Positions 3,358-26,835 of a DNA stretch of 64,000 nt are shown here, in pieces. Positions within the stretch are counted from its first letter, which is position 1. Every line of letters starts with the position of its first letter. Origin of the DNA: Bdellovibrionales bacterium. GTDB lineage: Bacteria > Bdellovibrionota > Bdellovibrionia > Bdellovibrionales > UBA1609. A program made the position numbers and the translations under genes. The notes beneath the pieces were generated by a model that searched no databases, was not told where the DNA came from, and saw only the letters and a program-made list of their open reading frames with translations. The stretch spans positions 544,001 to 608,000 of the forward strand of contig OZ241877.1 of the NCBI GenBank assembly GCA_965203095.1, written 5' to 3'.

Positions 3358-4623
3358 ATGCAAGTAATAGAGGAAAAGGGCTTAAAACGGAAGATAGAGT
3401 TTACTGTCCCTCTTGAAGAGGTCAATGCGGGTTTTTTAAAAAGCTATCAGCAAATACAAAAAACCGCTCGTATGCCTGGATTTCGACAAGGTAAAGTTCC
3501 CTTAAAAACCTTAGAGAGGAATTACAAAAATCAGGCGTATCAAAAAACTATAGAGAGCTTATTTCACTCATTTTATCCTATAGCTTTAAATCAGCTTTCC
3601 CTCCGGCCGGCCGGACCGCCACAACTCTTGAATGTGGATCTCCGGGAAGGGCAGGCTTGTAAATTTCTTTTGGAGATAGAGATTCACCCTCAAGTGGGCC
3701 TAAAAGGTTTAGAGAGTTTGCATTGTGCCCCTTTTAAGAGTCAAATTAAAGAGGAAGATGTGGATTCTGCTTTAAAGAGATTGAGGGAATCTTTTGCTGA
3801 GTGGGCCGACACTACTGGGGAGGGGCCACTAAAAAAAGCTGATTTTTGTGATATTCAGTTGGAGGCTTTTTCGTTATCGGGGGAGAGAAAGTTAGAGCCT
3901 ACTTCCCTTATGTTGGAGGCGGGAAAAAACTTCATAGCCCCCGGCTTTGATAAACATTTAATAGGGCTTAAACTGAAGGAAAAGCGAGAGTTTGATTTTT
4001 TATTTCCGGAAGATCATCCTCATACAAAAGTTGCGGGTCAAAAATTGCGGGTTTCTGCCTGTTTAATAGGGTTTAAAAATAAAGTTTTACCTAATTTAAA
4101 GTCTTTGGCTGAAAAATTGAGTTTAAAAACTGTGGAGGAATTGCGGGATAAGATTAAAAAAGACATACAAAAGCTTGAGAATCAAAAATATCAAGAAAAA
4201 CTGGAACAAGATATCCTCCAGCAGATAATAGAAAAAAACCCCTTAGATCTCCCTGAAGTTTTGATCCGGCAGGAAGTGCAAAGGCTTAAAGACATAGTGA
4301 AACAACAATGGGATCAAAAATCACCCGGCCAGTCATCCGCTTTTTTGAAAGATAAGGAACCGGAGTTTGAAAAATCAGCTAAAAAAAATCTTCATATAAG
4401 CTATCTTGTTCAACAGCTCATTCAGGATATGGAAATTAAAGTATCTGAAGAAGAGATTAAACAATCCCTAAAAAAAACCTTTCCGGAGACTCCATTAGAG
4501 AATGTGAAGGCTCAGCTAAAGCAGGAACAATCTTGGGATAGTTGGATCTTTAATCTCAAAAAGAAAAAGGCCTTAGGCCAGCTCATTCACCGGGCACAAA
4601 ACAAAACTTTAATAATACCCTAA
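3358..4623 (+). CDS. tig: Trigger factor
   Basis: Ribosome-binding signature MPGFRQGKVP, FKBP-like APGFDKHLIG, 421 aa. Confidence 0.9.
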   Translation: MQVIEEKGLKRKIEFTVPLEEVNAGFLKSYQQIQKTARMPGFRQGKVPLKTLERNYKNQAYQKTIESLFHSFYPIALNQLSLRPAGPPQLLNVDLREGQACKFLLEIEIHPQVGLKGLESLHCAPFKSQIKEEDVDSALKRLRESFAEWADTTGEGPLKKADFCDIQLEAFSLSGERKLEPTSLMLEAGKNFIAPGFDKHLIGLKLKEKREFDFLFPEDHPHTKVAGQKLRVSACLIGFKNKVLPNLKSLAEKLSLKTVEELRDKIKKDIQKLENQKYQEKLEQDILQQIIEKNPLDLPEVLIRQEVQRLKDIVKQQWDQKSPGQSSAFLKDKEPEFEKSAKKNLHISYLVQQLIQDMEIKVSEEEIKQSLKKTFPETPLENVKAQLKQEQSWDSWIFNLKKKKALGQLIHRAQNKTLIIP

Positions 4624-5115
4624 ACTTTTTAGAGTGAGCCAGCTCATCCAAGCCATAAAAAGTGTGACGGAAAAGGGAATACTGTGGAACTGGATCCCTT
4701 TGGTGGTTCGATTAGTGAATAAATAATATAAGTTGAGAAAAAACTTTTTAAGTTGCCCATCCAAAGTGATTTTAACCAATCCCAGGAGTAAAGCCCATGG
4801 TAAAGAGTAGATAAAAATACGGAGAAAATCCAACCAACTCAAAGTGAAAGCCAAAACAACTAAAAGCTTGAGGTCTCCTCCCCCAATGGCTCGAAGTAAA
4901 GCCAGAGGGACTGCCACAAGCAAGGCCAATCCTGCAGACAGGCCCCCATCTATTAGACCTTGAGATCCTTTGAGCACAAAAACCGCTAAAATAGCTATAA
5001 ATAACAGAACCAAAATGAGCTTGTTGTGAATTTTTCGGGAACGGAGATCATCAATGCTGGCAATAAATAAAATCAGGCCAGAGAGGAAAAATACCGGCTC
5101 TAAATTAAAGATCAT
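4609..5115 (-). CDS. Prepilin peptidase, A24 family (CpaA/TadV-like)
   Basis: DLRSRKIHN and GGGDLKL catalytic Asp motifs, multiple TM helices, downstream of flp-like genes. Confidence 0.88.
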   Translation of the reverse strand: MIFNLEPVFFLSGLILFIASIDDLRSRKIHNKLILVLLFIAILAVFVLKGSQGLIDGGLSAGLALLVAVPLALLRAIGGGDLKLLVVLAFTLSWLDFLRIFIYSLPWALLLGLVKITLDGQLKKFFLNLYYLFTNRTTKGIQFHSIPFSVTLFMAWMSWLTLKSLGYY

Positions 5116-5130
5116 TATCTGCTTTATTTA

Positions 5131-5319
5131 TTAAGGGGTTTGCCAATTGGACCCGGCCTCGGCCCTAAAAGCTTCGCCAGTTTCTAAATGATCTTCTACT
5201 ATTTTTGCCAGAAAGGGCGAGCCTTTTTGAAACATCGCAACAGGTCCATTACCTATAGAAAAAGCTCCGGCAAGGATCATAGCCGAAACAACAAGCAGAA
5301 GCAAATATTCAACAACCAT
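5131..5319 (-). CDS. Flp/TadE-like pilin lacking a cleavable leader
   Basis: Starts MVVEYLLLLVV (Flp EY motif); SD AAGGAG 7 nt upstream; in-frame stop shortly upstream. Confidence 0.65.
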   Translation of the reverse strand: MVVEYLLLLVVSAMILAGAFSIGNGPVAMFQKGSPFLAKIVEDHLETGEAFRAEAGSNWQTP

Positions 5320-5372
5320 TATGAAACTCCTTGTTTAAGAGAGCTTATTTAAAAAGATAGCTCTCAAAAAAC

Positions 5373-5400
5373 TTATCGGTTAAAAGCATAAAAAAATCAA
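5373..5400 (-). promoter_or_regulatory. Possible sigma28 (FliA) promoter
   Basis: -10 ACCGATAA at 5373-5380 on minus strand; -35 is poor (TTGAT). Confidence 0.4.
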
Positions 5401-5418
5401 GCCATTATGTGAATTTTT

Positions 5419-5700
5419 TTATGGCTTAGCTAAAAGCTGATCCAGCTTGGCTTCTATACTGTCTATCTTTTTTACCAGTTGATTTTGTCCAACTTCTATA
5501 CTGTCTATCCTTTTTACCAGTTGATTTTGTCCAACTTCTAAATTGTCTATCCTTTTTGCCAGATGAGCTATATCCTTTTTCATTGGTTCTATTTTTGCAT
5601 TTAAAAGAAAGTTCATAAAAAAAGCAAAAAAAGCAAAGACTAAAGAGAATGAGGCCACAACAGAAATAACCGTTGTGACGACAAGTTGTAAAGGTTTCAT
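5419..5700 (-). CDS. Small membrane-anchored coiled-coil repeat protein (XhlA/Bdr-like architecture)
   Basis: N-terminal TM helix then 14-aa (42-bp) repeats KRIDxxEVGQNQLV; SD AAGGAGG. Confidence 0.7.
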   Translation of the reverse strand: MKPLQLVVTTVISVVASFSLVFAFFAFFMNFLLNAKIEPMKKDIAHLAKRIDNLEVGQNQLVKRIDSIEVGQNQLVKKIDSIEAKLDQLLAKP

Positions 5701-5867
5701 TTTACCTCCTTTTGTTAACCGATTGACTCTATTATTGATTCATTGAGGCCAAAAGTCAATATTTTTTGATATTAGGGGCTATAATTTGCATGAATACATT
5801 AGTCGCTTGTGAAAAAGCCCAGTGTTTATATAGTTCTCAGCTGGTTTTACTCAAAAAACAACTTTTT

Positions 5868-5896
5868 TTGACTGAGTTTTAGCCTTGTGCTATAAT
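5868..5896 (+). promoter_or_regulatory. Sigma70 promoter, probably leaderless transcript
   Basis: TTGACT-N17-TATAAT with extended TG; ATG at 5903 lies 7 nt after the -10, no SD. Confidence 0.7.
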
Positions 5897-5902
5897 GGGT
5901 TT

Positions 5903-6259
5903 ATGAACTGGTCAGTTATATTAGATCTTTTTGATCAGGCTGTTCCTGTGGGAGTTGTGGCTATAATAGTTTTTCAAGCAGTCATGAGTCGGGATATGAA
6001 GCATATTAGAAAGGATTTAGATAATCATGTCACAGATACAAACAAAAAGATTGAAAATCTTGATAATAAGTTTGATAAAAAATTTGAAGGATTGGGTAGC
6101 AAGTTTGATAAAAAATTTGAAGGACTGGATAGCAAGTTTGATAAAAAATTTGAAGGATTGGGTAGCAAATTTGATAAAAAATTTGAAGGACTGGATAGCA
6201 AATTTGATAAAAAATTTGATAAACTTGAATCTAAAATAGATCAAATTTTAAGGAAATAG
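5903..6259 (+). CDS. Small membrane-anchored coiled-coil repeat protein (Bdr-like architecture)
   Basis: TM helix then 11-aa repeats (S)KFDKKFEGL(G/D); start moved to ATG 5903 on promoter position. Confidence 0.7.
   Translation: MNWSVILDLFDQAVPVGVVAIIVFQAVMSRDMKHIRKDLDNHVTDTNKKIENLDNKFDKKFEGLGSKFDKKFEGLDSKFDKKFEGLGSKFDKKFEGLDSKFDKKFDKLESKIDQILRK
6068..6219 (+). repeat. 33-bp coding tandem repeat, about 4.6 copies
   Basis: Units start 6068, 6101, 6134, 6167, 6200. Confidence 0.95.
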
Positions 6260-6284
6260 CTGAAAACTTAGTAAAGGCTAACCG

Positions 6285-6305
6285 AAAAGCCCACAGGCTT
6301 TTTTT
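6285..6305 (+). terminator. Intrinsic terminator upstream of the silent flp cassette
   Basis: AAAAGCC-CACA-GGCTTTT hairpin running into a T tract. Confidence 0.6.
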
Positions 6306-6360
6306 ATGAGTCTATTAGAAAGGTGCTGGGCTGAGAGGCTGGGAAAAAATTCACGCAGCA

Positions 6361-6531
6361 CTTTTCCACCATCTTTGGAGCGATGAGTCTGGCCAAGGAG
6401 CTATGGAGTATATCCTTATGCTCACAGTGGTTGCTGGTATCATTTTCATATTCAAAGGTAGAATTTCAGACATAGTAAATGAGCTTGTCGATAAATCAAA
6501 GGACAAAATGGGTAATGCTTTAGATCAATGA
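6361..6531 (+). other. Silent (start-less) Flp pilin cassette
   Basis: Reads LFHHLWSDESGQGAMEYILMLTVVAGIIFIFKGRISDIVNELVDKSKDKMGNALDQ*; in-frame TAG at 6316-6318 and no ATG/GTG/TTG before the G|Q cleavage site. Confidence 0.9.
6362..6422 (+). repeat. 61-bp perfect inverted repeat, left arm
   Basis: Exact reverse complement of 6962-7022. Confidence 0.97.
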
Positions 6532-6645
6532 CCATAATTATAAAAACTAATGGGTTATTTAAAGTTTGATGGTAGGCACTGACTCTATAAACCGAACTCT
6601 CATAATAAGCTTGTAATGAGTAAAGGGAAATCTCAAATCATACTG

Positions 6646-6791
6646 AGTCGTCCGTGAAAAACTTTGCTAAAAAGTCCCCCAGACTTTTTAGCTCCCGTGC
6701 AAACGGGAATCCATACACCTTGTTTTGTAGGAAGAACCCCGTATTTCACTATGTCCAGCTTTCCTGGATTCCCGCTTAAGGCGGGAATGAC
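6646..6791. repeat. Composite REP/MITE-like element between the two flp copies
   Basis: AGTCGTCCGTGAAAAA end, GCTAAAAAGTC..GACTTTTTAGC hairpin, and TCCC-N8/9-GGGAAT palindromes. Confidence 0.8.
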
Positions 6792-6840
6792 TGGGATATT
6801 GCCTCACAGCTGAATAGAGCTATAAAACTTGTCAGGATAG

Positions 6841-7044
6841 TTATTGAGTTTGGACACTGTCTATAGCACCCCTAAGTTTGCCCTCTGTCTGTGTAGTGAG
6901 ATTTCCAACTGCCTCCAGTATTGGTTTTTTAAAAGCTATTACTATAGCCCCAACTACAACCAGCATAAGGATATACTCCATAGCTCCTTGGCCAGACTCA
7001 TCGCTCCAAAGATGGTGGAAAAATTTTTTTATTGATTTTTTCAT
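6841..7044 (-). CDS. flp: Flp family type IVb/c pilin (complete copy with promoter and RBS)
   Basis: DESG|QGAMEY cleavage and EY motif, hydrophobic helix, 67 aa, SD AAGGAGG. Confidence 0.92.
   Translation of the reverse strand: MKKSIKKFFHHLWSDESGQGAMEYILMLVVVGAIVIAFKKPILEAVGNLTTQTEGKLRGAIDSVQTQ
6962..7022 (-). repeat. 61-bp perfect inverted repeat, right arm (inside complete flp)
   Basis: Exact reverse complement of 6362-6422; encodes FHHLWSDESGQGAMEYILML. Confidence 0.97.
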
Positions 7045-7065
7045 AAAAACCTCCTTTTGATAGTC

Positions 7066-7093
7066 TTATCGGTTGTAAGTCCAAAAAACTTAA
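7066..7093 (-). promoter_or_regulatory. Sigma28 (FliA) promoter of flp
   Basis: TTAAG-N16-CCGATAA, 22 nt upstream of the ATG. Confidence 0.75.
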
Positions 7094-7335
7094 GTAGAAA
7101 AATGAATTTTTTAAAAAAAATAATTAAGCACAAAAACTTATGCTAATCATAAGATTTTTAAATACCTCTTTTAAAATCAACATTTCTTGGCCCAAAAGCT
7201 CAAAATTATAGCCTTAGCTGTCCATTTAAAGAGCTTTTTCAGCCATAAAGACGAGAAAATGCCCTCCCCCCTATCTTTCTAAAAAAAACTTTTTTCTCTA
7301 AAAAAAAAGAATTTTTTTCACTTTCAGGCCAAAAT

Positions 7336-8661
7336 TTGACTTATCGGACACGATTTTATAACTTGTCGCCGATGCCCACAATAGATAAATTTTCTTCGCT
7401 CACGGTAGAATCCTCAGCAGGGGTTCAGGATTTTGATATGGGCTATCTGCTGTTTACCAGCGGAAGTCTTAAAAAAAGCCTGCCTTACCTCTATAAATCC
7501 ATGCAGGCTTTTTTAAAGAAAAAGGAGTTCTCCCATTACTTTTCCTGTTATTTTCTATTATTGCAGGCATTAGGGGAAATGGAGGAAAAAAACGAGGCCA
7601 GGGCCCTCTCTAAGGAAGTGGAAAACACCTGCAAAACCCACAAACTCGGGACAAAGCCTCTCTCGCTTTCTCTTTCAGCTTATTACAATATATATGAAGG
7701 CCATTTTGACTTGGCCAAAACACAGTTGAACTCGGCCTTAAAAACAGCTTTTGACCGTCACGATCACTATCTCAAAAAAAATGATCGCACCCGGCAATAC
7801 GCCCTTCGGTTTGATATTATGATCTGCCTGTATATTTATAGCGTTTTTTACTTGGAGACTAAAGATTATAGCAACTGCTCTCAAGAGATAAAAAATTTAC
7901 AGGCCCTTTTAAAAGATTATAGCCAACTCCAAAAAAATGTGGAGTTAGAGCATTCCCGGACAGACGATTCTCAAAGGTTAAAAGTTGGCCATTACATTTT
8001 ACAAACTTTAAAAAACAATGCTCAAAACCTCCAAAGATTGCGGTTGGGCACAAAGTTTATAGAGGCCCTTGTAGAGCTGAGGCACGGTAAAAATTACAGG
8101 CAAGCCGACCGGCTTTTATGGGAGCTTTATGAAGAGGCCAATAAAACAAACAATAATTTTTTTATACCTTATATTTTGTGCTCTATGGCATGGTGTCATG
8201 TCCAACAAGACAACAAAAAACAGGCTCAAGTTTTTTTTAATTTGGCCAAAAAAAATGTCAGTGAGGAGAGAAAGCTCCTCATCCGCTACATGGATCAATT
8301 AGAGCAGGAAGAGAAGTTTAACGATGTTCAAAACGAGAGCTATGACCTCATTTTTGACAGTAAGGATCATATTGTGGTGGAAAAGCAAAAAGGCTGTATT
8401 GAAATGAAAAATCAATTTATCCTAATGGATCTGCTCAAGCTTTTTTTGTCCACCCCAGGGCTTTCCTATTCTAAAGAGAAAATCATCAAAATAATATGGA
8501 AACAGGATTACATTTCGGAAGTGCACGATAACAAAATTTATGTGACGATAAAAAGGCTGAGGGAAATAATTGAGGTGGATTCCTGCAAACCCCGTTATAT
8601 ACTTAGGAATAGTGCTGGATATTACTTTTCAAAACAAGCTAAAATTTTGGTTAAATCCTAA
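7336..8661 (+). CDS. TPR-like protein with C-terminal OmpR/PhoB-type winged-helix domain
   Basis: C-terminal YSKEKII..IW...IYVTIKRLRE.IE....PRYILR...GYYF; start may be ATG 7372. Confidence 0.8.
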   Translation: MTYRTRFYNLSPMPTIDKFSSLTVESSAGVQDFDMGYLLFTSGSLKKSLPYLYKSMQAFLKKKEFSHYFSCYFLLLQALGEMEEKNEARALSKEVENTCKTHKLGTKPLSLSLSAYYNIYEGHFDLAKTQLNSALKTAFDRHDHYLKKNDRTRQYALRFDIMICLYIYSVFYLETKDYSNCSQEIKNLQALLKDYSQLQKNVELEHSRTDDSQRLKVGHYILQTLKNNAQNLQRLRLGTKFIEALVELRHGKNYRQADRLLWELYEEANKTNNNFFIPYILCSMAWCHVQQDNKKQAQVFFNLAKKNVSEERKLLIRYMDQLEQEEKFNDVQNESYDLIFDSKDHIVVEKQKGCIEMKNQFILMDLLKLFLSTPGLSYSKEKIIKIIWKQDYISEVHDNKIYVTIKRLREIIEVDSCKPRYILRNSAGYYFSKQAKILVKS

Positions 8662-13772: not shown

Positions 13773-13937
13773 ATGATTATAATTGAACAACTTTTTAATA
13801 AAAAAAGCAAAAAAAAGATTTTTCAGTCAGCCCAAAATGTCCAATTCGCTTATAAGAATTTTAAAACCAAAGCAAAGATGGAAGAGCTAACAGGGCTATT
13901 AAAAAAAAGATTCTTTGACATGGTTAGATACAGATAA
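13773..13937 (+). CDS. Short ORF with strong RBS, possibly the frameshifted N-terminus of the recombinase
   Basis: AAGGAG 8 nt before ATG 13773; overlaps recombinase frame at an A8 tract (13901-13908). Confidence 0.45.
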   Translation: MIIIEQLFNKKSKKKIFQSAQNVQFAYKNFKTKAKMEELTGLLKKRFFDMVRYR

Positions 13938-14913
13938 ATCGGAAATGTCTTTTTCTGATTGTTTTCAGCAATACCTGAAAGGAGGGATTCCCTCTCTAAA
14001 AAAATCTACCAGACAGGCTTACGAGACCCGCTGGAAATATTTTACAACAGGCCCCCTTCCGCATGTTAAAATGAAAGAGTTTAAGGCTCAAACTGTTTAT
14101 AATTGGATGAATTGGCTGAAAGCCCATCCGACAGCAAAAAACAAAAGCAGAAAGACATTTGCTCAAGAGTTAAAAACTCTTAAAATAATTTTGCATTGGC
14201 ATCGCAATTTTGTAGATGAGAATTTTAATGTTCCCATCACTAAAAAACACAAACAGCTTTGCTATTATAAAACGGTTCCACCAAAAAGGCCGGACTACTA
14301 TGCTAAGCCAGAGGAGCTGAGAGAATTTATCTGCTGGCTTAGGGATAATAGAAAAAATCCCATGTATTGGAGGTTGGCCTTGTTTATGGTCTTAACAGGG
14401 GCAAGGGTAGGCGAGGCTTGCGGGCTTTGTTGGAGTGCAGTGGATTTTAAAAGAGGCCATGCCAGAGTGATGAGACAAATGGCTTGGGAGCAAAAAAGCA
14501 AAAGGCCCTATTTAGAGGAAACAACAAAGACTTCCGCCTCTGCCCGTATTTTGTTATTGCCTGATGAGCTGTTGAGGCTTTTAAAGGCAATGAGGGCGGA
14601 AAGCTCGAATAAAACAGGTTTGCTCTTCACCGATCGAAGGGGCAAAGCTGTAAAATACAATGCCATTCAATCTTCTTTTAATGCGGGTTTTATGGCCTTA
14701 GGTTTAACTTGGCGATCGACTCATATTTTAAGGCATTCCTACGCCACAATCGCTTTAATAGCCACTAAAGATTTGTCTGCTGTTCAGGCAAGCCTTGGAC
14801 ATACTTCCAGCCGTATGACAGAAAGGTATGCTAAAGTCATAGCCTTACTTGACAGAAAAACAGCGGAAAAAACAGCCAAGGTTCTGGACATTTTTAGCAA
14901 ATTATCAAAGTGA
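13915..14913 (+). CDS. Tyrosine recombinase/integrase
   Basis: Complete catalytic set: LTGARVGE, TTK, HILRH, LGH, TERY; no good RBS at TTG 13915. Confidence 0.93.
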   Translation: MTWLDTDKSEMSFSDCFQQYLKGGIPSLKKSTRQAYETRWKYFTTGPLPHVKMKEFKAQTVYNWMNWLKAHPTAKNKSRKTFAQELKTLKIILHWHRNFVDENFNVPITKKHKQLCYYKTVPPKRPDYYAKPEELREFICWLRDNRKNPMYWRLALFMVLTGARVGEACGLCWSAVDFKRGHARVMRQMAWEQKSKRPYLEETTKTSASARILLLPDELLRLLKAMRAESSNKTGLLFTDRRGKAVKYNAIQSSFNAGFMALGLTWRSTHILRHSYATIALIATKDLSAVQASLGHTSSRMTERYAKVIALLDRKTAEKTAKVLDIFSKLSK

Positions 14914-14919
14914 TGAACT

Positions 14920-14993
14920 TATACTGATCTTGTTTGAAAATTCCTGCTTTCTCTACTCTGTTTTGACCGGAAATCTCAAATGTAATCAGTATA
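14920..14993. mobile_element. 74-bp MITE with TATACT ends (ERIC/Correia/RUP-like), copy 1
   Basis: Terminal inverted repeats TATACTGAT...ATCAGTATA; related copies at 51092-51161 and 61143-61211. Confidence 0.75.
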
Positions 14994-15109
14994 ATTTTTC
15001 CCAGGAACTCCGGACTTTCCGCCGACCTAATCCTTCCCCTTGGCATAGTCCTTTCTTTGAGAGTGAGAATCCTTAACTCCCTGCTCTCATAAAAACGAGA
15101 GGTCCTTTT

Positions 15110-15182
15110 GAAAGTGAATTTTAATAGATTTTTTAAAATGTGTGCGAAAAACTACCGCAATTCACTCAAAAAGTCTTCTAAA
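15110..15182 (+). repeat. Dispersed repeat segment A (direct copy at 27760-27834)
   Basis: GAAAGTGAATTTT..AGATTTTTT..AAATGTGT(T)GCGAAAAACT.CC.CAAT.CA.TCAAA shared by both sites. Confidence 0.85.
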
Positions 15183-15225
15183 TGGTGGATACTACCAAGA
15201 TTAACCTTAAATGCTCTGAAGTTCT

Positions 15226-15255
15226 ATTATTGAGCTATTTTGTTGGAATTGTCAA
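15226..15255 (-). promoter_or_regulatory. Sigma70-like promoter inside the invertible segment, pointing away from the pilin gene
   Basis: TTGACA-N18-AATAAT on minus strand with A/T tracts upstream of the -35. Confidence 0.6.
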
Positions 15256-15407
15256 AAAAATTTTTTAAAAATTTCTCAAGAAAAAGATTTTAAGGGAGGA
15301 TTCAGGTAAAAAAGCCTATAAATAAAGGCTTTTTGCCCACTTCCCGGCCTTCCCGACTTTTATCCTTATGAGACATTTATTCTACCTTTAGACCTAAAAA
15401 GAGGCTT

Positions 15408-15504
15408 AGCAGGCACTAAAAATCTTAAGGAAGGCTTTTTGGACTTAAACCCGCTCAATCTAAAAAAGCCTTTGTTTTCAAGGTTTTTGAGCCTTTCATT
15501 TTTA
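15408..15504 (-). repeat. Dispersed repeat segment B (inverted relative to copy at 27831-27923)
   Basis: GCACTAAAAATCTTAAGGAA.GCTTT..GGACTTAAA.CCCG.TCAATCTAAAAAAGC.TTTGTTTT is the reverse complement of 27.84-27.92 kb. Confidence 0.9.
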
Positions 15505-15590
15505 ACAATCTTGGTAGGAAATACCATTTTCCGAAAAAGATTTGAGCTTAAAGGCTTTGGAAAAACTTAAAACACATAAGGAGATAAATT

Positions 15591-16256
15591 ATGGAAAACA
15601 TAAAAACTTTTTTTAAAAGGCTTTTCTCTGCCTTCACAAAAGAGAGAAAAAACACTTTAGGCTTTTCCCTTGTGGAGCTATTGGTAGTCGTGGCTATCAT
15701 TGGAATTTTAGCCGCCGTGGCTGTGCCAGCTTATAACAAATATCGTGCCAATGCCGCCCAGGGAGCAATCACAGGCTCACTTCAGGCAATGGGTAAAGAC
15801 TTTGTGAATTGTCTTGCGACAAACACATGGGCTAATTGTGACTCTTTAACAGAACTGGGGGGGACTTGCCCAAATTGCATGTCTGGCACAGACGGAACAG
15901 ATGATTTTTGCCTTGATACAGAAAAAGAAGTCGCTGGGACAACATATATGGGTTGCGTAAGTGTTTCTGGTTCTGGGTTGCCTGTTATAGTGGGGAACTG
16001 GCCAAGCCTTTGCTCTGGTATTACCGTGAGTTATGGTTGCACCACGGTAGGATCTTTGACTAATCCAACAAACACATGTGCTGATTTAAATTGTATGAAT
16101 ACAGCCACAGCTCCGGTAGGGGCGGCTTGCACGGCAGGGATAGTCGCCGGGGCAATGGCCATCCAACATAATTGCACGGATACCACGGACGCCAATGCTT
16201 TAACTAATTCAATGGCCGCGGGAAGTTGTGGCATGACGACAGGGGAATGCTCTTAA
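15591..16256 (+). CDS. Type IVa pilin, cysteine-rich
   Basis: G|FSLVELLVVVAIIGILAAVAVPAY N-methyl motif; 14 Cys in the head domain; SD AAGGAG. Confidence 0.92.
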   Translation: MENIKTFFKRLFSAFTKERKNTLGFSLVELLVVVAIIGILAAVAVPAYNKYRANAAQGAITGSLQAMGKDFVNCLATNTWANCDSLTELGGTCPNCMSGTDGTDDFCLDTEKEVAGTTYMGCVSVSGSGLPVIVGNWPSLCSGITVSYGCTTVGSLTNPTNTCADLNCMNTATAPVGAACTAGIVAGAMAIQHNCTDTTDANALTNSMAAGSCGMTTGECS

Positions 16257-16287
16257 GGAGTATATTGCTGATTTAAGTTTAACTATG

Positions 16288-16315
16288 AGGGGGAGTTTTA
16301 TACTCCCCTTTATTT
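16288..16315 (+). terminator. Intrinsic terminator after pilin
   Basis: GGGGAGT-TTTAT-ACTCCCC followed by TTTATTT. Confidence 0.65.
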
Positions 16316-16332
16316 CCTAAAGGATAATAAAA

Positions 16333-16596
16333 ATGAGTTTAAAAGATATAGCTAAGAGAGCACAAAAAGCACAGAGAGATAAAGATAGAGAGAATTTATC
16401 AAAAGCTATTTTAGATTGTTATAAATACCTTAATAAAGAATATCCAGGGGAATACTTTGGAGCAGTTAAAATTGATAATAAACTTGGGATTAGAAAAGAA
16501 AGGGGGCATAGTTCTGGCACACATAGCATTATAAAAAGATTAAAAGAGGATGGTTTTTTAGAGCAAAAGCGGGGGTTTAGGATAAAAAATGACTGA
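16333..16596 (+). CDS. Small basic hypothetical protein, paralog 1 (winged-helix-like)
   Basis: Shares G.Y.GA.KID..L...GH....TH.I...L...G.L.Q..GFR with next ORF; SD AAGGA. Confidence 0.65.
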   Translation: MSLKDIAKRAQKAQRDKDRENLSKAILDCYKYLNKEYPGEYFGAVKIDNKLGIRKERGHSSGTHSIIKRLKEDGFLEQKRGFRIKND

Positions 16597-16813
16597 AAAT
16601 AAAACAAAAAAAAGAGAGATGATAAAGGACTTTTATAAGGATTTTCATAAAAAGCATCTGGGGAAATACATTGGAGCATATAAAATTGATGACAGGCTTA
16701 GTTTTGATCCGGGTCATAACAATTTTCCCACACATGACATTTTATTGGAATTGGTAAAAGAGGGATATTTGAAGCAAAACAAAGGTTCAGGGTTTAGGTT
16801 AAAAAAGAAATGA
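16589..16813 (+). CDS. Small basic hypothetical protein, paralog 2
   Basis: Paralog of 16333-16596; overlaps its stop codon. Confidence 0.65.
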   Translation: MTENKTKKREMIKDFYKDFHKKHLGKYIGAYKIDDRLSFDPGHNNFPTHDILLELVKEGYLKQNKGSGFRLKKK

Positions 16814-16847
16814 CTGAAAAACAAAAAATAGCTGGTGTGATTTTTGG

Positions 16848-17005
16848 CAAGGTTCGCGGGAATGACTGGGTTCACGGAAAAGACAAAGTTGGAATGGATT
16901 CCCGTTTTCACGGGAGCCCAAAAGTCCGGGGGACTTTTGGGCAAATTCACGAGAATGACTTGGTTCACGAGAGCTAAAAAGTCCGGGAGACTTTTAGGTA
17001 AATTC
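16848..17005. repeat. REP cluster
   Basis: GGGAATGAC units, GGATTCCCGTTTTCACGGGA and two AAAAGTCCGGG(G/A)GACTTTT hairpins. Confidence 0.8.
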
Positions 17006-17055
17006 TTTGGACAACAGAGGCAAACTTTTTCACAGGCAGGCAAATAGGTTAAAAG

Positions 17056-17493
17056 ATGACTGAAAAACAAAAAATAGCTGGTGCGATATTTGGAATTGCC
17101 ATAATTGCCTCTGTGGGCTTTGGCTGGAAACACTTTTTAAGTGCTAATGCATGCGATCACTATGGCAATGAGATTAAACGGCTTTTAGACGATCAGGACA
17201 ATCTTTTATTTACTTATGGTTTTTTTGCGGAACACACTTTAACAGAGGATAGACAAAAAGACTTCAAAAGATTGATTGAAGTAAAAGAGCCACTTGTCCG
17301 GGTCACAGTGGAGCACTTTTCAAAAACCTGCCGGTCCTCTCTTAGGAAAAGTGAGCTTATCGCTTTCCTTAAAACTTATGAGATTTATCTTGTGACTAAA
17401 CAAGCTTTCTTTAAACAAAGCCAGCGGTCGGGCTTTGATTGGATAAGAGATACCTTTCCCTTTGATCCTAAAATCTACAAAAACATAGATTAA
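17056..17493 (+). CDS. Membrane-anchored hypothetical protein
   Basis: N-terminal TM helix; first 38 bp duplicated at 16810-16847. Confidence 0.6.
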   Translation: MTEKQKIAGAIFGIAIIASVGFGWKHFLSANACDHYGNEIKRLLDDQDNLLFTYGFFAEHTLTEDRQKDFKRLIEVKEPLVRVTVEHFSKTCRSSLRKSELIAFLKTYEIYLVTKQAFFKQSQRSGFDWIRDTFPFDPKIYKNID

Positions 17494-17540
17494 CTTCATG
17501 AAACTTTTAGTGATTATGAACTCAATTAAATTTTAATTTT

Positions 17541-18494
17541 CTATTTTTGTAGTTGAGTAGGAGGTTTCACAAGAACACCTTGAACCTTTGCCCATGTCTT
17601 ATTCGCAGATCGTATCATTTTAACTCCTGTTGTATTCTCAAAAAACAATGTTATCAGATGATATGCTGTTAATACAGATTCTTGTAATTCACTATCATCT
17701 TCCAGAGCTTTCACCTTAAAATCATATTCACTCAATTTATTTTTTATTTGTGTAAAACCAATTGGACGACCATGGTTCAAATGTTTCACATTTATAAAAA
17801 AATCAGCGACTTGTTGAGCTTTTTTCTCATCTTTTAACATATATTTTGTTAACCATTCTTGAACCATTATTTTAGAGTAATTTAATGATTTTTTAGCTTC
17901 TTCAAGCAGACCTAAACCTAAGGATGATAAAATCGGTATCCATATTTGCATATTATTTGGATTTTGCTCAAAATCTTTCTTAGCTGTTTCAAACTGACTT
18001 ACAATAGAATGAGCTGATATTTGACGATTTTCTGAAAGAACAAACTGAGGATCAATAGGCCCCAAAAAAGAATGTTTGCCCATTATAATTTGATCTGATC
18101 CCAGAGCTATCATTGTTCCTGCTGACATAGCATAGGTAGGCACAATGACTTCTATATAGTGAAATTTTTCTCTTAAATATTTTACAATAGATTCCGTAGC
18201 GGTTGGAAGACCTCCTGGTGTGTGCAAAATCAAGGTTAATCCTTTAGAACAATCTAATCCCCGTATAATACTCATAAAACCATTTATGTCCTCTTTATTG
18301 ATAAGAGTAAGTGTAGGAATATTCCTTGGAGCAATTTTTTGCAAAAAAGCTGATGAGTATACAATAACAGCCCTGTTATTACAGAGCTTTGAAATTTGAT
18401 TTATATAATTTTTAAATTTAGACTCAAACCAGCTCTGTTTAGAGTGTTGATTAACAGGTGTAAACTCATTCAATAATTCTTCCCAAGATGGCAT
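17541..18494 (-). CDS. SDH-family ClpP-fold serine protease
   Basis: LILHTPGG, AMSAGTMIAL, LGPIDPQ, HGRPI motifs; lower GC than flanks. Confidence 0.85.
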   Translation of the reverse strand: MPSWEELLNEFTPVNQHSKQSWFESKFKNYINQISKLCNNRAVIVYSSAFLQKIAPRNIPTLTLINKEDINGFMSIIRGLDCSKGLTLILHTPGGLPTATESIVKYLREKFHYIEVIVPTYAMSAGTMIALGSDQIIMGKHSFLGPIDPQFVLSENRQISAHSIVSQFETAKKDFEQNPNNMQIWIPILSSLGLGLLEEAKKSLNYSKIMVQEWLTKYMLKDEKKAQQVADFFINVKHLNHGRPIGFTQIKNKLSEYDFKVKALEDDSELQESVLTAYHLITLFFENTTGVKMIRSANKTWAKVQGVLVKPPTQLQK

Positions 18495-18497
18495 AAA

Positions 18498-18677
18498 TCA
18501 GTAGTCGGTCAAGATTTGTCTTGTTGGAATATTTTTAGAGAGTTGTTGAGTTAATTCTGTTAAATTAGATATTTTTGTTGTTTCAATATATTTTATATAT
18601 TTTTTTTCTTCAGATTTATAAAATTCTTTCCAATCTGAGATTTTTTTTGAAGATTTTTTTTCTTTATTTCTTTCCAT
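18498..18677 (-). CDS. 59-aa hypothetical protein directly upstream of the protease
   Basis: ORF MERNKEKNSS...RQILTDY* ends 3 nt before the protease ATG (below the ORF-track cutoff). Confidence 0.45.
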   Translation of the reverse strand: MERNKEKKSSKKISDWKEFYKSEEKKYIKYIETTKISNLTELTQQLSKNIPTRQILTDY

Positions 18678-18881
18678 AGAATGACTTAACTATAATTTTA
18701 TAGCTTTTTTTAGATAATTAGTCAACTCTTTTTAAGAAAATAGCCTAAAATCCAACAAAATCACGAACTACATCCTTTTTTTGAGGACTTGTGACTCGTA
18801 AGCCTTTCAGAAAAAATCAGATTGAAAACCCCGTCTTTAGCACAGAAAAACAGGCGAGCTTTGTTTTTTCCCTTAAAAAGC

Positions 18882-18909
18882 TAAAGGATTTGACGCATTG
18901 CTCCGATAA
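18882..18909 (+). promoter_or_regulatory. Possible sigma28 promoter of the Type ISP gene
   Basis: TAAAG-N16-CCGATAA, 7 nt before ATG 18917. Confidence 0.55.
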
Positions 18910-18916
18910 ATGGAGT

Positions 18917-21900
18917 ATGAAATCAGACTTCAAAAGTTTTCTTCAAATCATTCGTAAAAAAGCCAAAAATGAAAGGGAAAAAGGAGCTTTTTTTGAAAGA
19001 GCCATAAGGGATTTTCTACGAGAATCCCCTGAATATTCTTTTGAAAATGTATGGCTATGGCCTAACTGGCCAGACTTAAAAAAACACAGTTTTTCAAAAA
19101 AAGACTTAGGCATTGATCTTGTAGCTCGTGAAAAAGAAACCGGAACATTTTGGGCCATCCAATGCAAATGCTTTGATGAAAACCACCAAGTGAATAAAGC
19201 AGATATAGACAGTTTTTTCGCTCATTCAGGGAAAAATCCCTTTAAAGTTCGTCTTATTGTCACAACTACAAATAATTGGGGGGCTAATGCTGAAGAGTCT
19301 TTACGAAACCAGACAAAGGAATGCAAAGTTTTAGATTTGCATGGTTTGCAAACAGCTAATTTTGAATGGAGTTTTCAAAAAGTAAAACGAAAAACAGAAC
19401 AAAAATATTTAAGAGATCATCAAAAAGAGGCCGTCCGCAAATCAGCTGAGCATTTTAAAAAAGAAAAAAGAGGAAAGCTCATAATGGCCTGTGGGACGGG
19501 CAAGACTTTTGCTTCTCTCCGGGTTGTAGAAAGGATCACTCCAAAAAACGCAAATGTTTTATTTCTTGCTCCTTCCATTTCTCTTATATCTCAAACCTTA
19601 AGAGAATACGCTTGGCAGAGGAAATCAGCTCAAAGATACCTTGCCGTTTGTTCCGATACAAAAGCCGGAAAAGATACAGACGGCTATGATGTAAATGATT
19701 TGCAAATATCCCCAACCACTGATCCGAAAAAAATTGCTAAGAGGCTGAAGATCAAATCGAGACAAAGAACTATTGTTTTTTCCACCTACCAATCTCTTAA
19801 ACAAATAAAAAAAGCTCAAAAACTTGGGGCACCGGTTTTTGATCTTGTTGTTTGTGACGAAGCCCACAGGACAACTGGAGTTGAAGCCGGGGAAGAAAAA
19901 AACGGGAAGAACACAGGCAATTATTTTACCAGAATAAATGATGAAGATTATTTGAAAGCCAAAAAGCGACTTTATATGACCGCCACACCTAAAATTTATA
20001 GTGAAAGAATCAAAAGCAAGGCCAAAAAACATGATGTAGAGATTCACTCTATGGATGATGAAGCTGTTTTTGGAAAGGAGATTTACAGATTGGATTTTTC
20101 CTCCGCTATTGAGAAAAAACTGTTGGCCGATTACAAAGTGATCATTTTATCCATTGACGAACAATATATGAGCGACAATATTCAGGAAATACTAAAAGGC
20201 ACTGAGCTTAACTTAGATGATGCCTCCCGTTTGGTGGGTTGCTACAAAGCCTTGCGGGATCAAGGGGATAAAAAACAGGGGTTAAAGTTAGGCCGGGCTG
20301 TAGGCTTTTTGAACACAATCAAAGCGAGTAAAGATGTCAAACAGGAATTTCAAAAAGTTGTGAAAGCCTTAGATGAATATAAAAATGATGGTTTTACTTG
20401 TGAGACAGAGCATATTGACGGAACAGACAGCTCTATTGTTAGAAACAAAAAATTAGACTGGCTAAAAGAAGATGCTGGCAAAACAGAAAGAAAAGAGAAG
20501 ATATGCCGGATTTTATTCAATTCCAAATGTCTTACAGAGGGGGTGGATGTTCCCAGTCTTGATGCTGTGATGTTTTTGCATGCAAGAAAATCCCAAGTGG
20601 ATGTCGTGCAGGCAGTGGGCCGTATAATGAGAAAGTTGGAAGGCAAACAATATGGCTATGTGATTTTGCCAGTAGTGATTCCTACAGGGAAATCCCCGGA
20701 ACAAGCTTTAAATGATAATGAAACTTATAAAGTAGTTTGGCAGGTTTTAAATGCTTTAAGGTCTCACGATTCAAAATTTAATGCCTTGATAAATAACTTG
20801 GAGTTGAATGAAAACAAGCCAGATAAAATTAAAGTTATAGGCATTGGTTATGGAAGTGAGAAGGAAAGAAAAGAAGTTGAGGAGAAGACAAATCCTCAAA
20901 TCCAACTCAACCTCCAATACAGTATTGAGGAGATAGAGGATAAAATTTACGCCAAAATTGTTGAAAAATGCGGAGACAGAGTCTATGAAGAAAAATGGAC
21001 TAAGGAGATTGAAAAGGCTTGTAAGACCATCTCCGTCCGGATAAAAAGCCTTTTAAAGACAAAGCCTCAAATCAATAAGGAATTTCAAACTTACTATAAA
21101 GGGCTTAAGTCCTGTATCAATGAGGACATTAAGGAGGAGCAGGCTGTCTCTATGATTTCAGAGCATCTGATTACTCGTCCCGCTTTTGATAAGATTTTTG
21201 AGAATTACAAGTTTTCTGAAAACAATCCTGTTTCTAAAACCATGAAAAAAGTTTTGTCTCGTTTGGATGAATATGGCTTTAGCAATGAGTTAAAAGACCT
21301 TGAAAAGTTTTATCAAGGGATAAGTGGCCGGATAGAGGGAATTGACAACTCCGCCTCCCGACAAAAATTCATTAAAGAGCTTTATGAAAATTTTATAAAA
21401 ACTGCTTTTCCTAAAACAGCTGAAAAATTAGGCGTGGCTTATACCCCGGTGGAGATCGTGGATTTTATATTAAGGTCTGCTGATGAAATTTTAAAAGATG
21501 AGTTCGGTAAAAAATTAACTAATAAGGGAGTGCATGTCATAGATCCTTTTGTGGGGACGGGGACTTTCCTCAATAGGTTAATTCAAATGAACCCGGTTAT
21601 AGAAAAAAAAGATCTCCCCCGAAAGTTCAAACATGAACTTCATGCCAATGATATTTTGCTCCTGCCTTATTATGTGGCCTCTATTAACATTGAGGAGGCT
21701 TATCATTCTCGAATAGGAGGGAATCAATACAGGCCCTTTCCAAGGATAACATTGTCAGACATTTTTAACCGTAAGGAACGAGATAAACAACTTTCTCTTT
21801 CTCCTTATTTTCAGGAAAACAAAAAGAGAATAAAACAACAGCAAGAAGTGGATCTTCAGGTCATTATAGGGAATCCTCCATATTCCTCCGGCCAAAGGAA

Positions 21901-23710
21901 CGAAAATGACGCCAATAAAAACACAGTTTACCCAAAACTCCATAAAAGGATTGAGGATACCTATGTTAAAGAGTCATCAGCTCAGCTAAATACAGCCCTT
22001 TATGATTCCTATATCAAAGCCATTCGCTGGGCCACAGATGAGATTCAGGATAAAGGAGGTATTATTGGTTTTGTTCATAATGCCTCTCTTGTAAGCCAAA
22101 GGAGCACTGCTGGACTCAGGAGATCCCTTATAAAAGAGTTTGACTCCATTTACTGCTTTAACTTAAGAGGCAACCAAAGAACAAAAGGGGAGCTTTCAAA
22201 AAAAGAAGGAGGCAAAGTTTTTGGAGGTAGTTCCCGAACTCCTATAGCCATCACTTTCCTTATAAAAAATCCAAAGAAACGGAGAGAAAAAGCCACAATC
22301 AAATATCTTGATATTGGCGACTACCTCAGCCGTGAGGACAAGTTAGAAAAAGTTAAGAGCTTTGGTTGTATTAAAGGCATAGGGAAGGAATGGAAAACCA
22401 TAACACCGGACAAATATGGGGACTGGATCAACCAGCGGGATGAATCCTTTTATCAATTTATGCCTATTGGGGATAAAAAGTCCGGCAATCAAAATGCTAT
22501 TTTTAGTTTGTATAGCTGTGGAGTGGCCACCAGTAGAGATACTTGGGTTTATAACTTCAGTAAAGATCAAGTCCAAAAGAATATGAAAAAAATGATTCAA
22601 TTTTATAATCAGGAATTAGCACGCTTAAAGGATAAAACACTGGACAAAAAAACTATTGATAAATTTATCAATCGGGATGATAAAAAAATAAAATGGTCTT
22701 ATAGGATTAAAGAAAAATTTTGTAGAGAAAAACGAGCTATATTTGATCAAAAATTACTTAGATGTTCCAGCTATAGACCATTTATGAAATCATTAGTTTA
22801 TTTTGATCGAGATTTCAATGAGAGACAATCTCAATTACCAAAAATTTTCCCAAAAGAGACAACAAAAAATAAAATGATCTGTATAAGTGGGGTTGGAGCG
22901 AATAAATTTTCAGTTTTAATAACAGATGTTGTGCCCTGTGGAGATTATTTGAATAAAACCCAATGCTTCCCTCTCTATCGTTTTGATAATGATTTTGACA
23001 CTTCTCAAAAAAGCCTTCTGAACCAGAGCAAGCCCTCCTACAGCATTACCGACTCTGCCCTTAATCGTTTTAAAAATCATTACAAAAGAGATAAAGTTTT
23101 GGGAAAATCCTCAAACACCATTACCAAAGAGAATATTTTTTATTATATTTATGGCCTCCTCCATTCAGAGGACTACCGGCAGAAATACCAGTCCAACCTA
23201 AGTAAAGATCTCCCTCGTATTCCATTAGTTCCGGAGTTTCAAGAGTTTTCCCACATTGGCCGAAAGCTTGCCGATCTGCACTTAAACTATGAACACCAAT
23301 CACCTCCTAAAGGTGTCAAAATCTTAAATTCTGGCCAAGAGATAAATATGTTTCAATTAAAAAACTCCTCAGAGGACTTGAAAGTTAAAAAAATGAAGAT
23401 GAACAAAAAAGACAAATCTAAAATCCAATTTAACGATCGCATCACTATTTCAAACATCCCGCCAGAGGCTTGGGAATACAAAATCAACGGCTATTCTGCT
23501 CCCAAATGGATTGTAGAAAGATACCAATACAAGAAGGACAAAAAAACAGACTTAGTAAATGACCCCAATAGCTATTCAGATGACCCGGCTTATATCTTGA
23601 AACTGCTCCTCAGTATAATAACAGTTTCCTTAAAAACCCGGGAGCTTGTTCAAAGCCTCCCTTCCATTGATTTTGACAGCCTCATCTCCTCCATAAATAA
23701 AGCTGGATAA
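18917..23710 (+). CDS. Type ISP restriction-modification enzyme (LlaGI/LlaBIII-like)
   Basis: Mrr-like nuclease (GIDLVA..IQCK), SF2 helicase (GTGKT, DEAH, QAVGR), N6-MTase (DPFVGTG, NPPY), C-terminal TRD; frame is open from GTG 18791. Confidence 0.93.
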   Translation: MKSDFKSFLQIIRKKAKNEREKGAFFERAIRDFLRESPEYSFENVWLWPNWPDLKKHSFSKKDLGIDLVAREKETGTFWAIQCKCFDENHQVNKADIDSFFAHSGKNPFKVRLIVTTTNNWGANAEESLRNQTKECKVLDLHGLQTANFEWSFQKVKRKTEQKYLRDHQKEAVRKSAEHFKKEKRGKLIMACGTGKTFASLRVVERITPKNANVLFLAPSISLISQTLREYAWQRKSAQRYLAVCSDTKAGKDTDGYDVNDLQISPTTDPKKIAKRLKIKSRQRTIVFSTYQSLKQIKKAQKLGAPVFDLVVCDEAHRTTGVEAGEEKNGKNTGNYFTRINDEDYLKAKKRLYMTATPKIYSERIKSKAKKHDVEIHSMDDEAVFGKEIYRLDFSSAIEKKLLADYKVIILSIDEQYMSDNIQEILKGTELNLDDASRLVGCYKALRDQGDKKQGLKLGRAVGFLNTIKASKDVKQEFQKVVKALDEYKNDGFTCETEHIDGTDSSIVRNKKLDWLKEDAGKTERKEKICRILFNSKCLTEGVDVPSLDAVMFLHARKSQVDVVQAVGRIMRKLEGKQYGYVILPVVIPTGKSPEQALNDNETYKVVWQVLNALRSHDSKFNALINNLELNENKPDKIKVIGIGYGSEKERKEVEEKTNPQIQLNLQYSIEEIEDKIYAKIVEKCGDRVYEEKWTKEIEKACKTISVRIKSLLKTKPQINKEFQTYYKGLKSCINEDIKEEQAVSMISEHLITRPAFDKIFENYKFSENNPVSKTMKKVLSRLDEYGFSNELKDLEKFYQGISGRIEGIDNSASRQKFIKELYENFIKTAFPKTAEKLGVAYTPVEIVDFILRSADEILKDEFGKKLTNKGVHVIDPFVGTGTFLNRLIQMNPVIEKKDLPRKFKHELHANDILLLPYYVASINIEEAYHSRIGGNQYRPFPRITLSDIFNRKERDKQLSLSPYFQENKKRIKQQQEVDLQVIIGNPPYSSGQRNENDANKNTVYPKLHKRIEDTYVKESSAQLNTALYDSYIKAIRWATDEIQDKGGIIGFVHNASLVSQRSTAGLRRSLIKEFDSIYCFNLRGNQRTKGELSKKEGGKVFGGSSRTPIAITFLIKNPKKRREKATIKYLDIGDYLSREDKLEKVKSFGCIKGIGKEWKTITPDKYGDWINQRDESFYQFMPIGDKKSGNQNAIFSLYSCGVATSRDTWVYNFSKDQVQKNMKKMIQFYNQELARLKDKTLDKKTIDKFINRDDKKIKWSYRIKEKFCREKRAIFDQKLLRCSSYRPFMKSLVYFDRDFNERQSQLPKIFPKETTKNKMICISGVGANKFSVLITDVVPCGDYLNKTQCFPLYRFDNDFDTSQKSLLNQSKPSYSITDSALNRFKNHYKRDKVLGKSSNTITKENIFYYIYGLLHSEDYRQKYQSNLSKDLPRIPLVPEFQEFSHIGRKLADLHLNYEHQSPPKGVKILNSGQEINMFQLKNSSEDLKVKKMKMNKKDKSKIQFNDRITISNIPPEAWEYKINGYSAPKWIVERYQYKKDKKTDLVNDPNSYSDDPAYILKLLLSIITVSLKTRELVQSLPSIDFDSLISSINKAG

Positions 23711-23774
23711 ACCAAAATTTTTGGAAAATAATAGTTTTTGCCAAAAGAATGATATGATTTTCAATTCCCATTTT

Positions 23775-26345: not shown

Positions 26346-26664
26346 AATTTATTTTATCTTATAGTTGGTTCAATTTCTTGTTTTTTCCACCAGGTGTTTT
26401 ATCTCTAAATTTTATTCCTTGGATTTTTTATGAAATCCAGAAATCTAAATATGAGGTCATTTGCCGAAAAAGCAAGGTCTAATACCGATTTTTTTGAAAA
26501 TAAAATCTCACTGCGGAGAACAGAAACTTAAAGAAAGTTTATGTTAAAAAAGCTCCTCAAGCTTTTTTATATTAAAAATCTTGAGAAAAAGGCTCTTAAA
26601 TACCTATAAACTTTGTTTATTTATCCGAGAACATACTGATATTTTTAACAAGGTTCATGGCATT

Positions 26665-26835
26665 TTAAGAACCGTTTTTTAGTTTTTTTATTGCTTTTTC
26701 AGAAAGCCCTGTCACTTTGGAAATAAAAGAAATATTTGCTTTCTCTTTCAGCATATTTAAAACAAGCTCTCTGTCTCTTGCTTGTCGGCCTTCCCAACGA
26801 CCCTTCTCTTTAATAATTTCCCAAACATCTTGCAT
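26665..26835 (-). CDS. Predicted intragenic small Rpn product (Rpn-S, 56 aa)
   Basis: Internal AAGGAGGG-CTT-ATG in frame at 26835. Confidence 0.6.
   Translation of the reverse strand: MQDVWEIIKEKGRWEGRQARDRELVLNMLKEKANISFISKVTGLSEKAIKKLKNGS

Follow-up and report, generated by a model that had tools for sequence, protein, structure and literature searches.

In a 64,000-nucleotide stretch of the genome of an uncultured Bdellovibrionales bacterium (contig OZ241877.1, positions 544,001 to 608,000; henceforth the window, in whose own numbering positions are given), we describe a locus at which two opposed copies of a gene for the major Flp pilin share a perfect 61-bp inverted repeat within their coding sequence. 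One copy, flp1, is a complete gene with a predicted promoter, and the other is a silent cassette with neither promoter nor start codon. We see about an even chance that the locus is a two-cassette DNA-inversion switch that swaps the C-terminus of the major Flp (Tad, type IVc) pilin. Tad/Flp pili are widespread organelles of adhesion and predation, and their variation is usually attributed to paralogous genes or minor pilins. More tentatively, we suggest that the locus may possibly be the first case of DNA inversion switching a Tad/Flp major pilin, built on an intragenic 61-bp repeat with no dedicated invertase and driven by short-homology recombination, which might alter what the pilus binds (a prey or host surface) or what recognizes it (phage or host immunity).

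In the proposed mechanism, a FliA-type promoter, a Shine-Dalgarno (SD) sequence, the start codon and the first eight codons would form a single set of expression signals outside the invertible segment. One reciprocal crossover anywhere in the repeat would reverse the 539-bp segment between the two arms and bring the alternative C-terminal half in frame behind these sole expression signals, and the displaced half would be parked behind a terminator without a start codon. Such a change of fusion would alter the outer, variable part of the pilus. The crossover would presumably proceed without a dedicated neighbouring invertase, by short-homology recombination that may or may not depend on RecA; an unlinked recombinase as the motor is a less likely alternative. 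We infer the flipping, as well as its frequency and the selection for it, from the evidence set out below.

Two opposed flp cassettes and their shared repeat

Self-comparison delimits the longest block common to the two copies to exactly 61 nt (6362-6422, inverted at 6962-7022), with 100% identity that covers all third codon positions. Outside this block, the copies agree at only 9 of 30 positions upstream and 48 of 109 downstream. The repeat encodes what is left of the leader, then the processing site, and the mature pilin up to residue 10; the variable part begins exactly at the repeat end, with C-terminal halves of 39 and 35 residues, and both alternative fusions are in frame. Such a sharp island of identity is the pattern that would be expected from recurrent recombination or conversion limited to the 61-bp block. 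When the genome was compared with itself at thresholds of 35 bp and 97% identity, just two inverted repeats had their arms under 6 kb apart; leaving out dispersed repeats, the flp repeat is alone in 1.8 Mb as a close perfect inverted repeat. Because close inverted repeats are so rare genome-wide, the flp repeat is no chance match.

The second close perfect inverted repeat, 64 bp long with arms 3314 bp apart (G000 C1:1602613-1606054, locus L144 4614-8055; arms at C1:1602613 and C1:1605991), encloses a 219-aa open reading frame (ORF) of no known family and a gene for arginine decarboxylase. We rejected it as a sister switch, its arms being copies of a dispersed repeat that recurs elsewhere at 93% identity.

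The flp1 product contains the G-XXXX-EY motif, which is invariant across a 24-sequence alignment of the family, followed by a hydrophobic stretch. It matches the Flp1_like profile with an E value of 8.9e-8 and 31.9 bits, just below the profile cut-off of 33.5 bits; the best PDB profile match, Caulobacter PilA (8u1k_A, 45 aa), is not significant (E 0.6). Codons 1-8 and the SD, the latter read from the sequence with a 5-nt spacer to the start, lie outside the repeat, and the final 39 codons belong to the segment that would invert. Scored against the FliA consensus, the predicted promoter (7092-7066, minus strand) matches at 7 of 8 positions in the -10 element and 3 of 4 in the -35 element, with a 15-bp spacer. 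The flp1 gene of Bdellovibrio has been described as FliA-driven, and flp1, flp2 and flp4 are each reported as required for its predation (PMC5430801). Given that these pilins are needed there, an altered pilin would plausibly have a phenotype here. The same source describes Bdellovibrio Flp2 as a trimmed, leaderless pilin with the motif M-X-X-E-Y (Avidan et al., PMC5430801).

A 306-nt contig from a marine metagenome (run X5, depth 3.3) shows just three differences, at window positions 6914, 6915 and 6927. All three fall in the variable half of the active cassette and are nonsynonymous (K40E, E44T), which is a weak hint of diversifying selection or else low-depth error.

The silent copy occupies a plus-strand frame (6316-6531) that begins with a TAG at 6316 and stays open until the stop at 6529-6531. 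No ATG, GTG or TTG precedes the processing site in this frame, and the sole ORF listed there on the plus strand begins at an internal ATG at 6403. Residues 5-50 of the silent copy match Flp1_like with an E value of 1.4e-9 and 37.7 bits, above both the cut-off of 33.5 and the 31.9 bits of the active copy, and the match spans profile positions 2-47 of 49, variable half included. Judged by this profile match, the silent half appears to retain Flp family character. After fusion, the mature part that it encodes would measure 45 aa, as against 49 aa in the active gene. The terminator of an upstream ORF directly precedes the cassette, and no site resembling a promoter turned up on the plus strand from 6260 to 6400. 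We considered whether the DNA upstream of the cassette represents a decayed set of promoter, SD and start and rejected this, since ungapped identity there (9/30 and 13/45) is at chance level; 5'-truncation at the repeat describes the cassette better.

This anatomy had been outlined in a sequence-only reading of the window, which claimed an flp gene at 6841-7044 (minus strand) with a sigma-28-like promoter, SD and leader; a start-less copy at 6361-6531 (plus strand) with a TAG at 6316, an intact stop and an upstream terminator; and a 61/61 repeat around a 539-bp segment, setting a 49-aa against a 45-aa mature pilin. Coordinates, consensus match and translation agree with the first of these descriptions, frame reading and folding support every element of the second, and self-comparison together with translation reproduced each coordinate of the third.

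Structure and orientation in public sequencing runs

Evidence on structure and orientation was drawn from four of seven listed public runs, all in the form of Logan contigs and not raw reads. Run X3 has independent contigs over the left flank, the middle, the right flank and all four repeat junctions at an equal depth of 36-38, and run X5, from another study, contains both ends of the middle segment. Taken together, this equal coverage and the second set of segment ends exclude an assembly artefact. The X3 contigs break off 30 nt into each arm (6391/6393 and 6991/6993), which points to a k=31 graph that is incapable of phasing a 61-nt repeat.

In run X4, which carries the same organism label and stems from another sample, a single 552-nt contig (depth 8.7) joins 6775..6362 (minus strand) to 7023..7160 (plus strand) through 61 shared letters. 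This join equals the flipped right-hand junction, and its path leads from the promoter, start and leader into the other C-terminal half as one intact gene. Because the same 31-mers occur in both orientations, the path fits a flipped population and is no proof of one. No X4 contig covers 6164-6361 or 6776-6961. As these are just the branches that would rival the flipped path, the graph can traverse the repeat for want of another route. With the segment flipped, the two uncovered stretches would merge into a single contiguous gap; we discarded this argument for flipping as too weak to lend support (likelihood ratio near 1-2). Of the pilin inversion switch put forward in the sequence-only reading, the anatomy thus stands (single promoter and leader, opposed halves, in-frame fusions), and the flipping, represented by one ambiguous k=31 contig, is so far a prediction.

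A series of observations weighs against a working switch. The X4 junction is the only flipped one seen, and its path is possibly a graph artefact. Searching the silent cassette against a collection of 5.8 billion proteins returned only the window's own flp1 and no fused alternative pilin. The repeat itself shows no dyad symmetry beyond 10 nt with two mismatches, and any piece of it elsewhere in the genome is at most 14 nt long. A terminator-like hairpin within the segment (6666-6692) has a T-run for minus-strand transcripts only, and it has this T-run solely in the present orientation. No recombinase is encoded within 6.8 kb of the repeat, and the locus encodes no invertase. Among 61 family genomes, 55 of them with an flp match, two convergent copies occur in the window genome only: the arrangement is absent from the 60 others and from all nine congeners, each of which has one flp except the metagenome-assembled genome (MAG) G004. 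Across 143 loci with an flp-type motif, the repeat is present in three, all of them the window genome's own; one further locus has a local hairpin. Nor does the arrangement recur in 80 genome loci. The exact 61-nt repeat has no match in Joint Genome Institute (JGI) metagenome contigs, and a degenerate motif scan of metagenomes found 15 loci, each with a single match and none paired. Related genomes had been proposed as a place to look for the flipped state, and those checked have the arrangement in neither orientation; by these comparisons, it lacks evolutionary conservation, with no relative in the opposite orientation.

The two flp matches of G004 were rejected as cassettes, as they lie on near-identical contig ends in the same flp1-flp2 order. 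On these ends (L056 and L060, contigs C68 and C89), the flp1-flp2 pairs differ by few substitutions in the variable half. Heterogeneity between strains probably interrupted the assembly of this MAG at its pilin locus.

Another congener, G009 (L010 836-910 and 1987-2060; overlapping L057 and L072), has a 76-nt inverted repeat of 85% identity that brackets flp1. One of its arms adjoins the Flp-like motif of a large divergent pilin-like ORF, and the arms look like low-complexity coding repeats.

A possible motor of inversion

The genome encodes RecA, three tyrosine recombinases, of which two are Xer-like (XerC-like and XerD-like), and one serine recombinase. The nearest to the repeat is the divergent tyrosine recombinase at 13915-14913, which heads a cluster with integrase, type ISP restriction enzyme and transposase genes; nothing was found that links it to the flp repeat. 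The serine recombinase (252 aa) lies about 425 kb away and finds its best family in the Mpi master invertase, with a score of 51.6 bits, far below the cut-off of 272, and no inverted repeat of at least 25 nt occurs around it (C1:964-981 kb). A search for IS110/Piv-type (DEDD) enzymes with PF01548 gave no match in the genome, the control being positive in seven of 14 genomes. Nowhere in the genome does a fragment of the flp repeat lie near a recombinase gene. The earlier statement that no invertase is adjacent therefore holds, with the nearest recombinase 6.8 kb away. Among the enzymes named with it as candidates, RecA is indeed encoded; for the tyrosine recombinase, part of an island-like cluster, no link to the repeat was found.

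A precedent for inversion without a dedicated enzyme exists in the spnIII locus of Streptococcus pneumoniae, where an 85-bp coding inverted repeat is reported to invert in about 1.2-1.7% of colony cells, independently of CreX, other known site-specific recombinases and RecA (PMC6620402). By analogy with this case, short-homology recombination between close repeats would be the most likely motor at the flp locus.

Alternative explanations

We weighed four other accounts of the locus. The silent copy could be a static relic, that is, a 5'-truncated flp fragment that arrived with a 1.5-kb insert and had its N-terminal block equalised by one gene conversion, leaving a young pseudogene at which inversion is rare and unselected. 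We hold this main rival to be rather unlikely; in its favour, the arrangement is confined to one species, the host insert also carries hairpin repeats and two small ORFs, an adjacent invertase is lacking, and there is no homology upstream of the repeat (9/30), as for a truncated fragment. By our own estimate, moreover, a 35-codon frame would remain open by chance in about 8% of cases at a G+C content of 37%. Against a relic stand the Flp1_like match of the silent fragment, above the Pfam cut-off over its whole length, and the identity block, which stops exactly at the boundary between constant and variable parts and leaves the fusions in frame. Furthermore, similar perfect repeats are reported to invert measurably elsewhere without a dedicated enzyme (PMC6620402). 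As this enzyme-free inversion occurs at a similar repeat length and spacing, a truly static state is physically unlikely. The identity block could also result from a silent cassette that acts as a one-way reservoir for non-reciprocal conversion of flp1, comparable to pilE/pilS in Neisseria, which we consider improbable. A silent, promoterless copy with an intact variable part would suit this role, and RecA is encoded; however, the donor would be a single one, inverted and 539 bp away, and the copies have a single homology block. Downstream, where 48 of 109 positions agree, no perfect block is found, which leaves a conversion tract without a second anchor. Since the copies share one inverted homology block only, inversion by a single crossover is simpler than a two-ended gene conversion.

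The plus-strand copy might otherwise be a separately expressed gene, read from a non-canonical CTG start at 6331 or from the internal ATG at 6403, the latter giving a leaderless product that resembles the trimmed Flp2 pilins known in Bdellovibrio (PMC5430801). SD-like purine runs do precede both codons, in the case of ATG 6403 by 2 nt, but this spacing is too short, the region 6260-6400 offers no promoter-like site on the plus strand, and a terminator lies directly upstream. The product from ATG 6403 would also begin with M-E-Y, two residues short of the M-X-X-E-Y described for Flp2 (PMC5430801), and we regard separate expression as highly improbable. A long-read assembly error, through a chimeric or fold-back join, is a general risk with inverted repeats for which nothing more speaks here, and it has a next to negligible probability: it is refuted by the equal depth of 36-38 over the four junctions in X3 and by the segment ends in X5.

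Comparison with known inversion systems

One close parallel to the proposed inversion switch is the tfpQ-tfpI locus of Moraxella bovis and M. lacunata, where an invertible segment holds two opposed C-terminal halves, the single promoter and the constant N-terminal part are kept outside it, and the crossover falls within coding sequence. There, the product is a type IVa pilin, the segment measures about 2 kb, and the DEDD/IS110-type invertase Piv is encoded alongside. The flp locus shares the single promoter and constant part, the opposed alternative pilin C-termini and the intragenic crossover, and differs in its Flp/Tad pilin, its 0.54-kb segment and a genome (90% complete) without a Piv-type (PF01548) enzyme. 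The shufflon comprises several segments, sfx repeats of about 19 bp and an adjacent tyrosine recombinase, Rci, and acts on pilV, a minor tip pilin of a conjugative type IVb pilus; the flp locus, in contrast, has two cassettes, a 61-bp repeat, a major pilin and no adjacent recombinase. In the sap system of Campylobacter fetus, one promoter serves promoterless cassettes with a conserved 5' block through RecA-based inversion without an invertase. This system works with a shared 5' block of about 600 bp, many cassettes, nested inversions of several kb and an S-layer product, whereas the block at the flp locus is 61 bp long, the cassettes number two and the product is a pilin. It is plausible that the known logic of Moraxella, the shufflon and sap is at work here on a different pilin class, repeat and enzyme setting, with switching as the part that we infer.

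The Moraxella invertible pilin locus is among the phase-variable loci covered by a review in which neither Flp nor Tad occurs (PMC11868660), and exchange of type IV pilin C-termini by inversion, with a change of specificity, is a described theme of R64/IncI shufflons (PMC9045228). As in the spnIII (ivr) hsdS system, a perfect coding inverted repeat of similar length at the flp locus would exchange protein halves (PMC6620402). In spnIII, the protein is a restriction-specificity subunit, and further repeats of 15 bp and 333 bp as well as a dedicated recombinase gene are present, unlike at the flp locus. The intragenic invertons reported with PhaVa likewise recode proteins by inversion within a gene (PMC10028968). 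They were found by read mapping and mostly have short repeats (11 positions in thiC), in contrast to the flp repeat; the words pilin, pilus and Flp do not occur in the main text of that report (PMC10028968). The flp1-flp4 genes of Bdellovibrio belong to the same family and include a FliA-type flp1 promoter, an adjacent trimmed flp2 and a silent flp (flp3), but their diversity comes from separate complete genes, and the accessible part of the source describes no inverted repeat or cassette (PMC5430801). A literature search judged by titles and abstracts gave no paper on Flp/Tad pilin inversion.

If the proposed switch is real, classical pilin-inversion logic would extend to the smallest pilin class, and a short coding repeat alone, with no neighbouring invertase, would serve as a switch. 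This would bear on how many such invertons are missed or dismissed in read-mapping surveys. Prey or host range could then shift in an uncultured marine lineage, Flp pilins being reported as essential for predation in Bdellovibrio (PMC5430801).

Gene neighbourhood of the flp locus

The host genome comprises 1.8 Mb in two contigs with a G+C content of 37% and is 90% complete. Nearly all relatives of its flp are from MAGs titled Bdellovibrionales, Bdellovibrionaceae or Pseudobdellovibrionaceae. The regulator, flp1, flp2 and peptidase genes of the window (Table 1) match the order found in the genus. In five congeners (G002, G006, G007, G008 and G009), flp1 is followed 25-380 bp on by a trimmed M-X-X-E-Y pilin; both G004 contig ends likewise have a trimmed pilin after flp1. 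A prepilin peptidase of about 170 aa comes next in four of the five, and a divergent ORF of 434-439 aa lies upstream of flp1 in three of the five, at the position of the regulator with tetratricopeptide repeats (TPR) and a winged helix in the window. Relative to this synteny, flp1 and flp2 are set apart in the window genome by an insert of about 1.5 kb. As this insert is absent from the congener order, the spare cassette belongs to a species-specific insertion. The T2SSF domain has six matches in the genome, none of them linked to flp; two of the ORFs concerned, of 311 and 315 aa, have the size of TadB/C.

Table 1. Features of the flp locus and its surroundings, in window coordinates.
Feature	Position	Strand	Basis
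Prepilin peptidase, TadV-like, Peptidase_A24	4609..5115	-	Pfam E 5.1e-11; flp1-flp2-tadV order
flp2-like trimmed pilin, start M-X-X-E-Y, then hydrophobic stretch	5131..5319	-	Motif as described in PMC5430801; flp1 adjacency in five congeners and G004
Insert of about 1.5 kb relative to genus synteny	5320..6840	.	Two small ORFs, silent cassette, hairpin repeats
ORF within insert, small coiled-coil membrane protein	5419-5700	-	Sequence features
ORF within insert, small coiled-coil membrane protein; 33-bp tandem repeats	5885-6259	+	Sequence features
Intrinsic terminator of upstream ORF 5885-6259, directly before silent cassette	6284..6306	+	8-bp hairpin and U7, -13.3 kcal/mol, z -2.6
Silent flp cassette, frame and stop intact, without start codon or promoter	6361..6531	+	ORF reading, Flp1_like
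Left arm of 61-bp inverted repeat	6362..6422	.	Self-comparison
Putatively invertible 539-bp segment: both variable C-terminal cassettes tail to tail and 309-bp spacer	6423..6961	.	Sequence; inversion proposed
Dispersed hairpin modules within segment, resembling repetitive extragenic palindromes or miniature inverted-repeat transposable elements (REP/MITE-like)	6646..6794	.	54 further genome matches; excess depth
Active flp1 prepilin gene, 67 aa: 18-aa leader and 49-aa mature pilin	6841..7044	-	ORF, Pfam Flp1_like
Right arm of 61-bp inverted repeat (region of flp1 codons 9-28)	6962..7022	.	Self-comparison
Predicted sigma-28 (FliA)-type promoter of flp1, beyond invertible segment	7066..7092	-	Consensus match
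Regulator with TPR and OmpR-type winged helix, divergent from flp1	7336..8661	+	Domains; similar N-terminus in congener ORFs at the same place (n=3)
Divergent tyrosine recombinase, heads island-like cluster	13915..14913	+	Domain search; nearest recombinase, 6.8 kb

The 33-bp tandem repeat at 6011-6241, inside the ORF at 5885-6259, amounts to five copies of an 11-residue unit. A contig from a sponge metagenome (X6) has 137 bases of this array exchanged for 38 others, which indicates that the array varies between strains. Flp-like G-XXXX-EY modules also open larger proteins, at G000 C1:1382242 (373-aa frame) and C1:784209 (153-aa frame), and a similar large gene lies divergent from flp1 in G008 and G009.

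Elsewhere in the window, an island-like region follows leuS at 13915-27642, headed by the tyrosine recombinase. Further genes there encode a type IV pilin-like protein that bears an N-methylation motif (15591-16256), a protease of the SDH type and a type ISP restriction-modification enzyme of 1639 aa; an ORF of 856 aa without any known family and a YhgA-like transposase are also present. The G+C content drops to 31-33% at 24-28 kb of the window. The genome's only serine recombinase is found in a repeat-rich region (G000 C1:964000-981000, L063) together with many secreted pentapeptide-repeat paralogues. Within this region, a 592-aa DDE transposase lies inside a 3-kb duplication with two extra flp2-like genes (76 aa).

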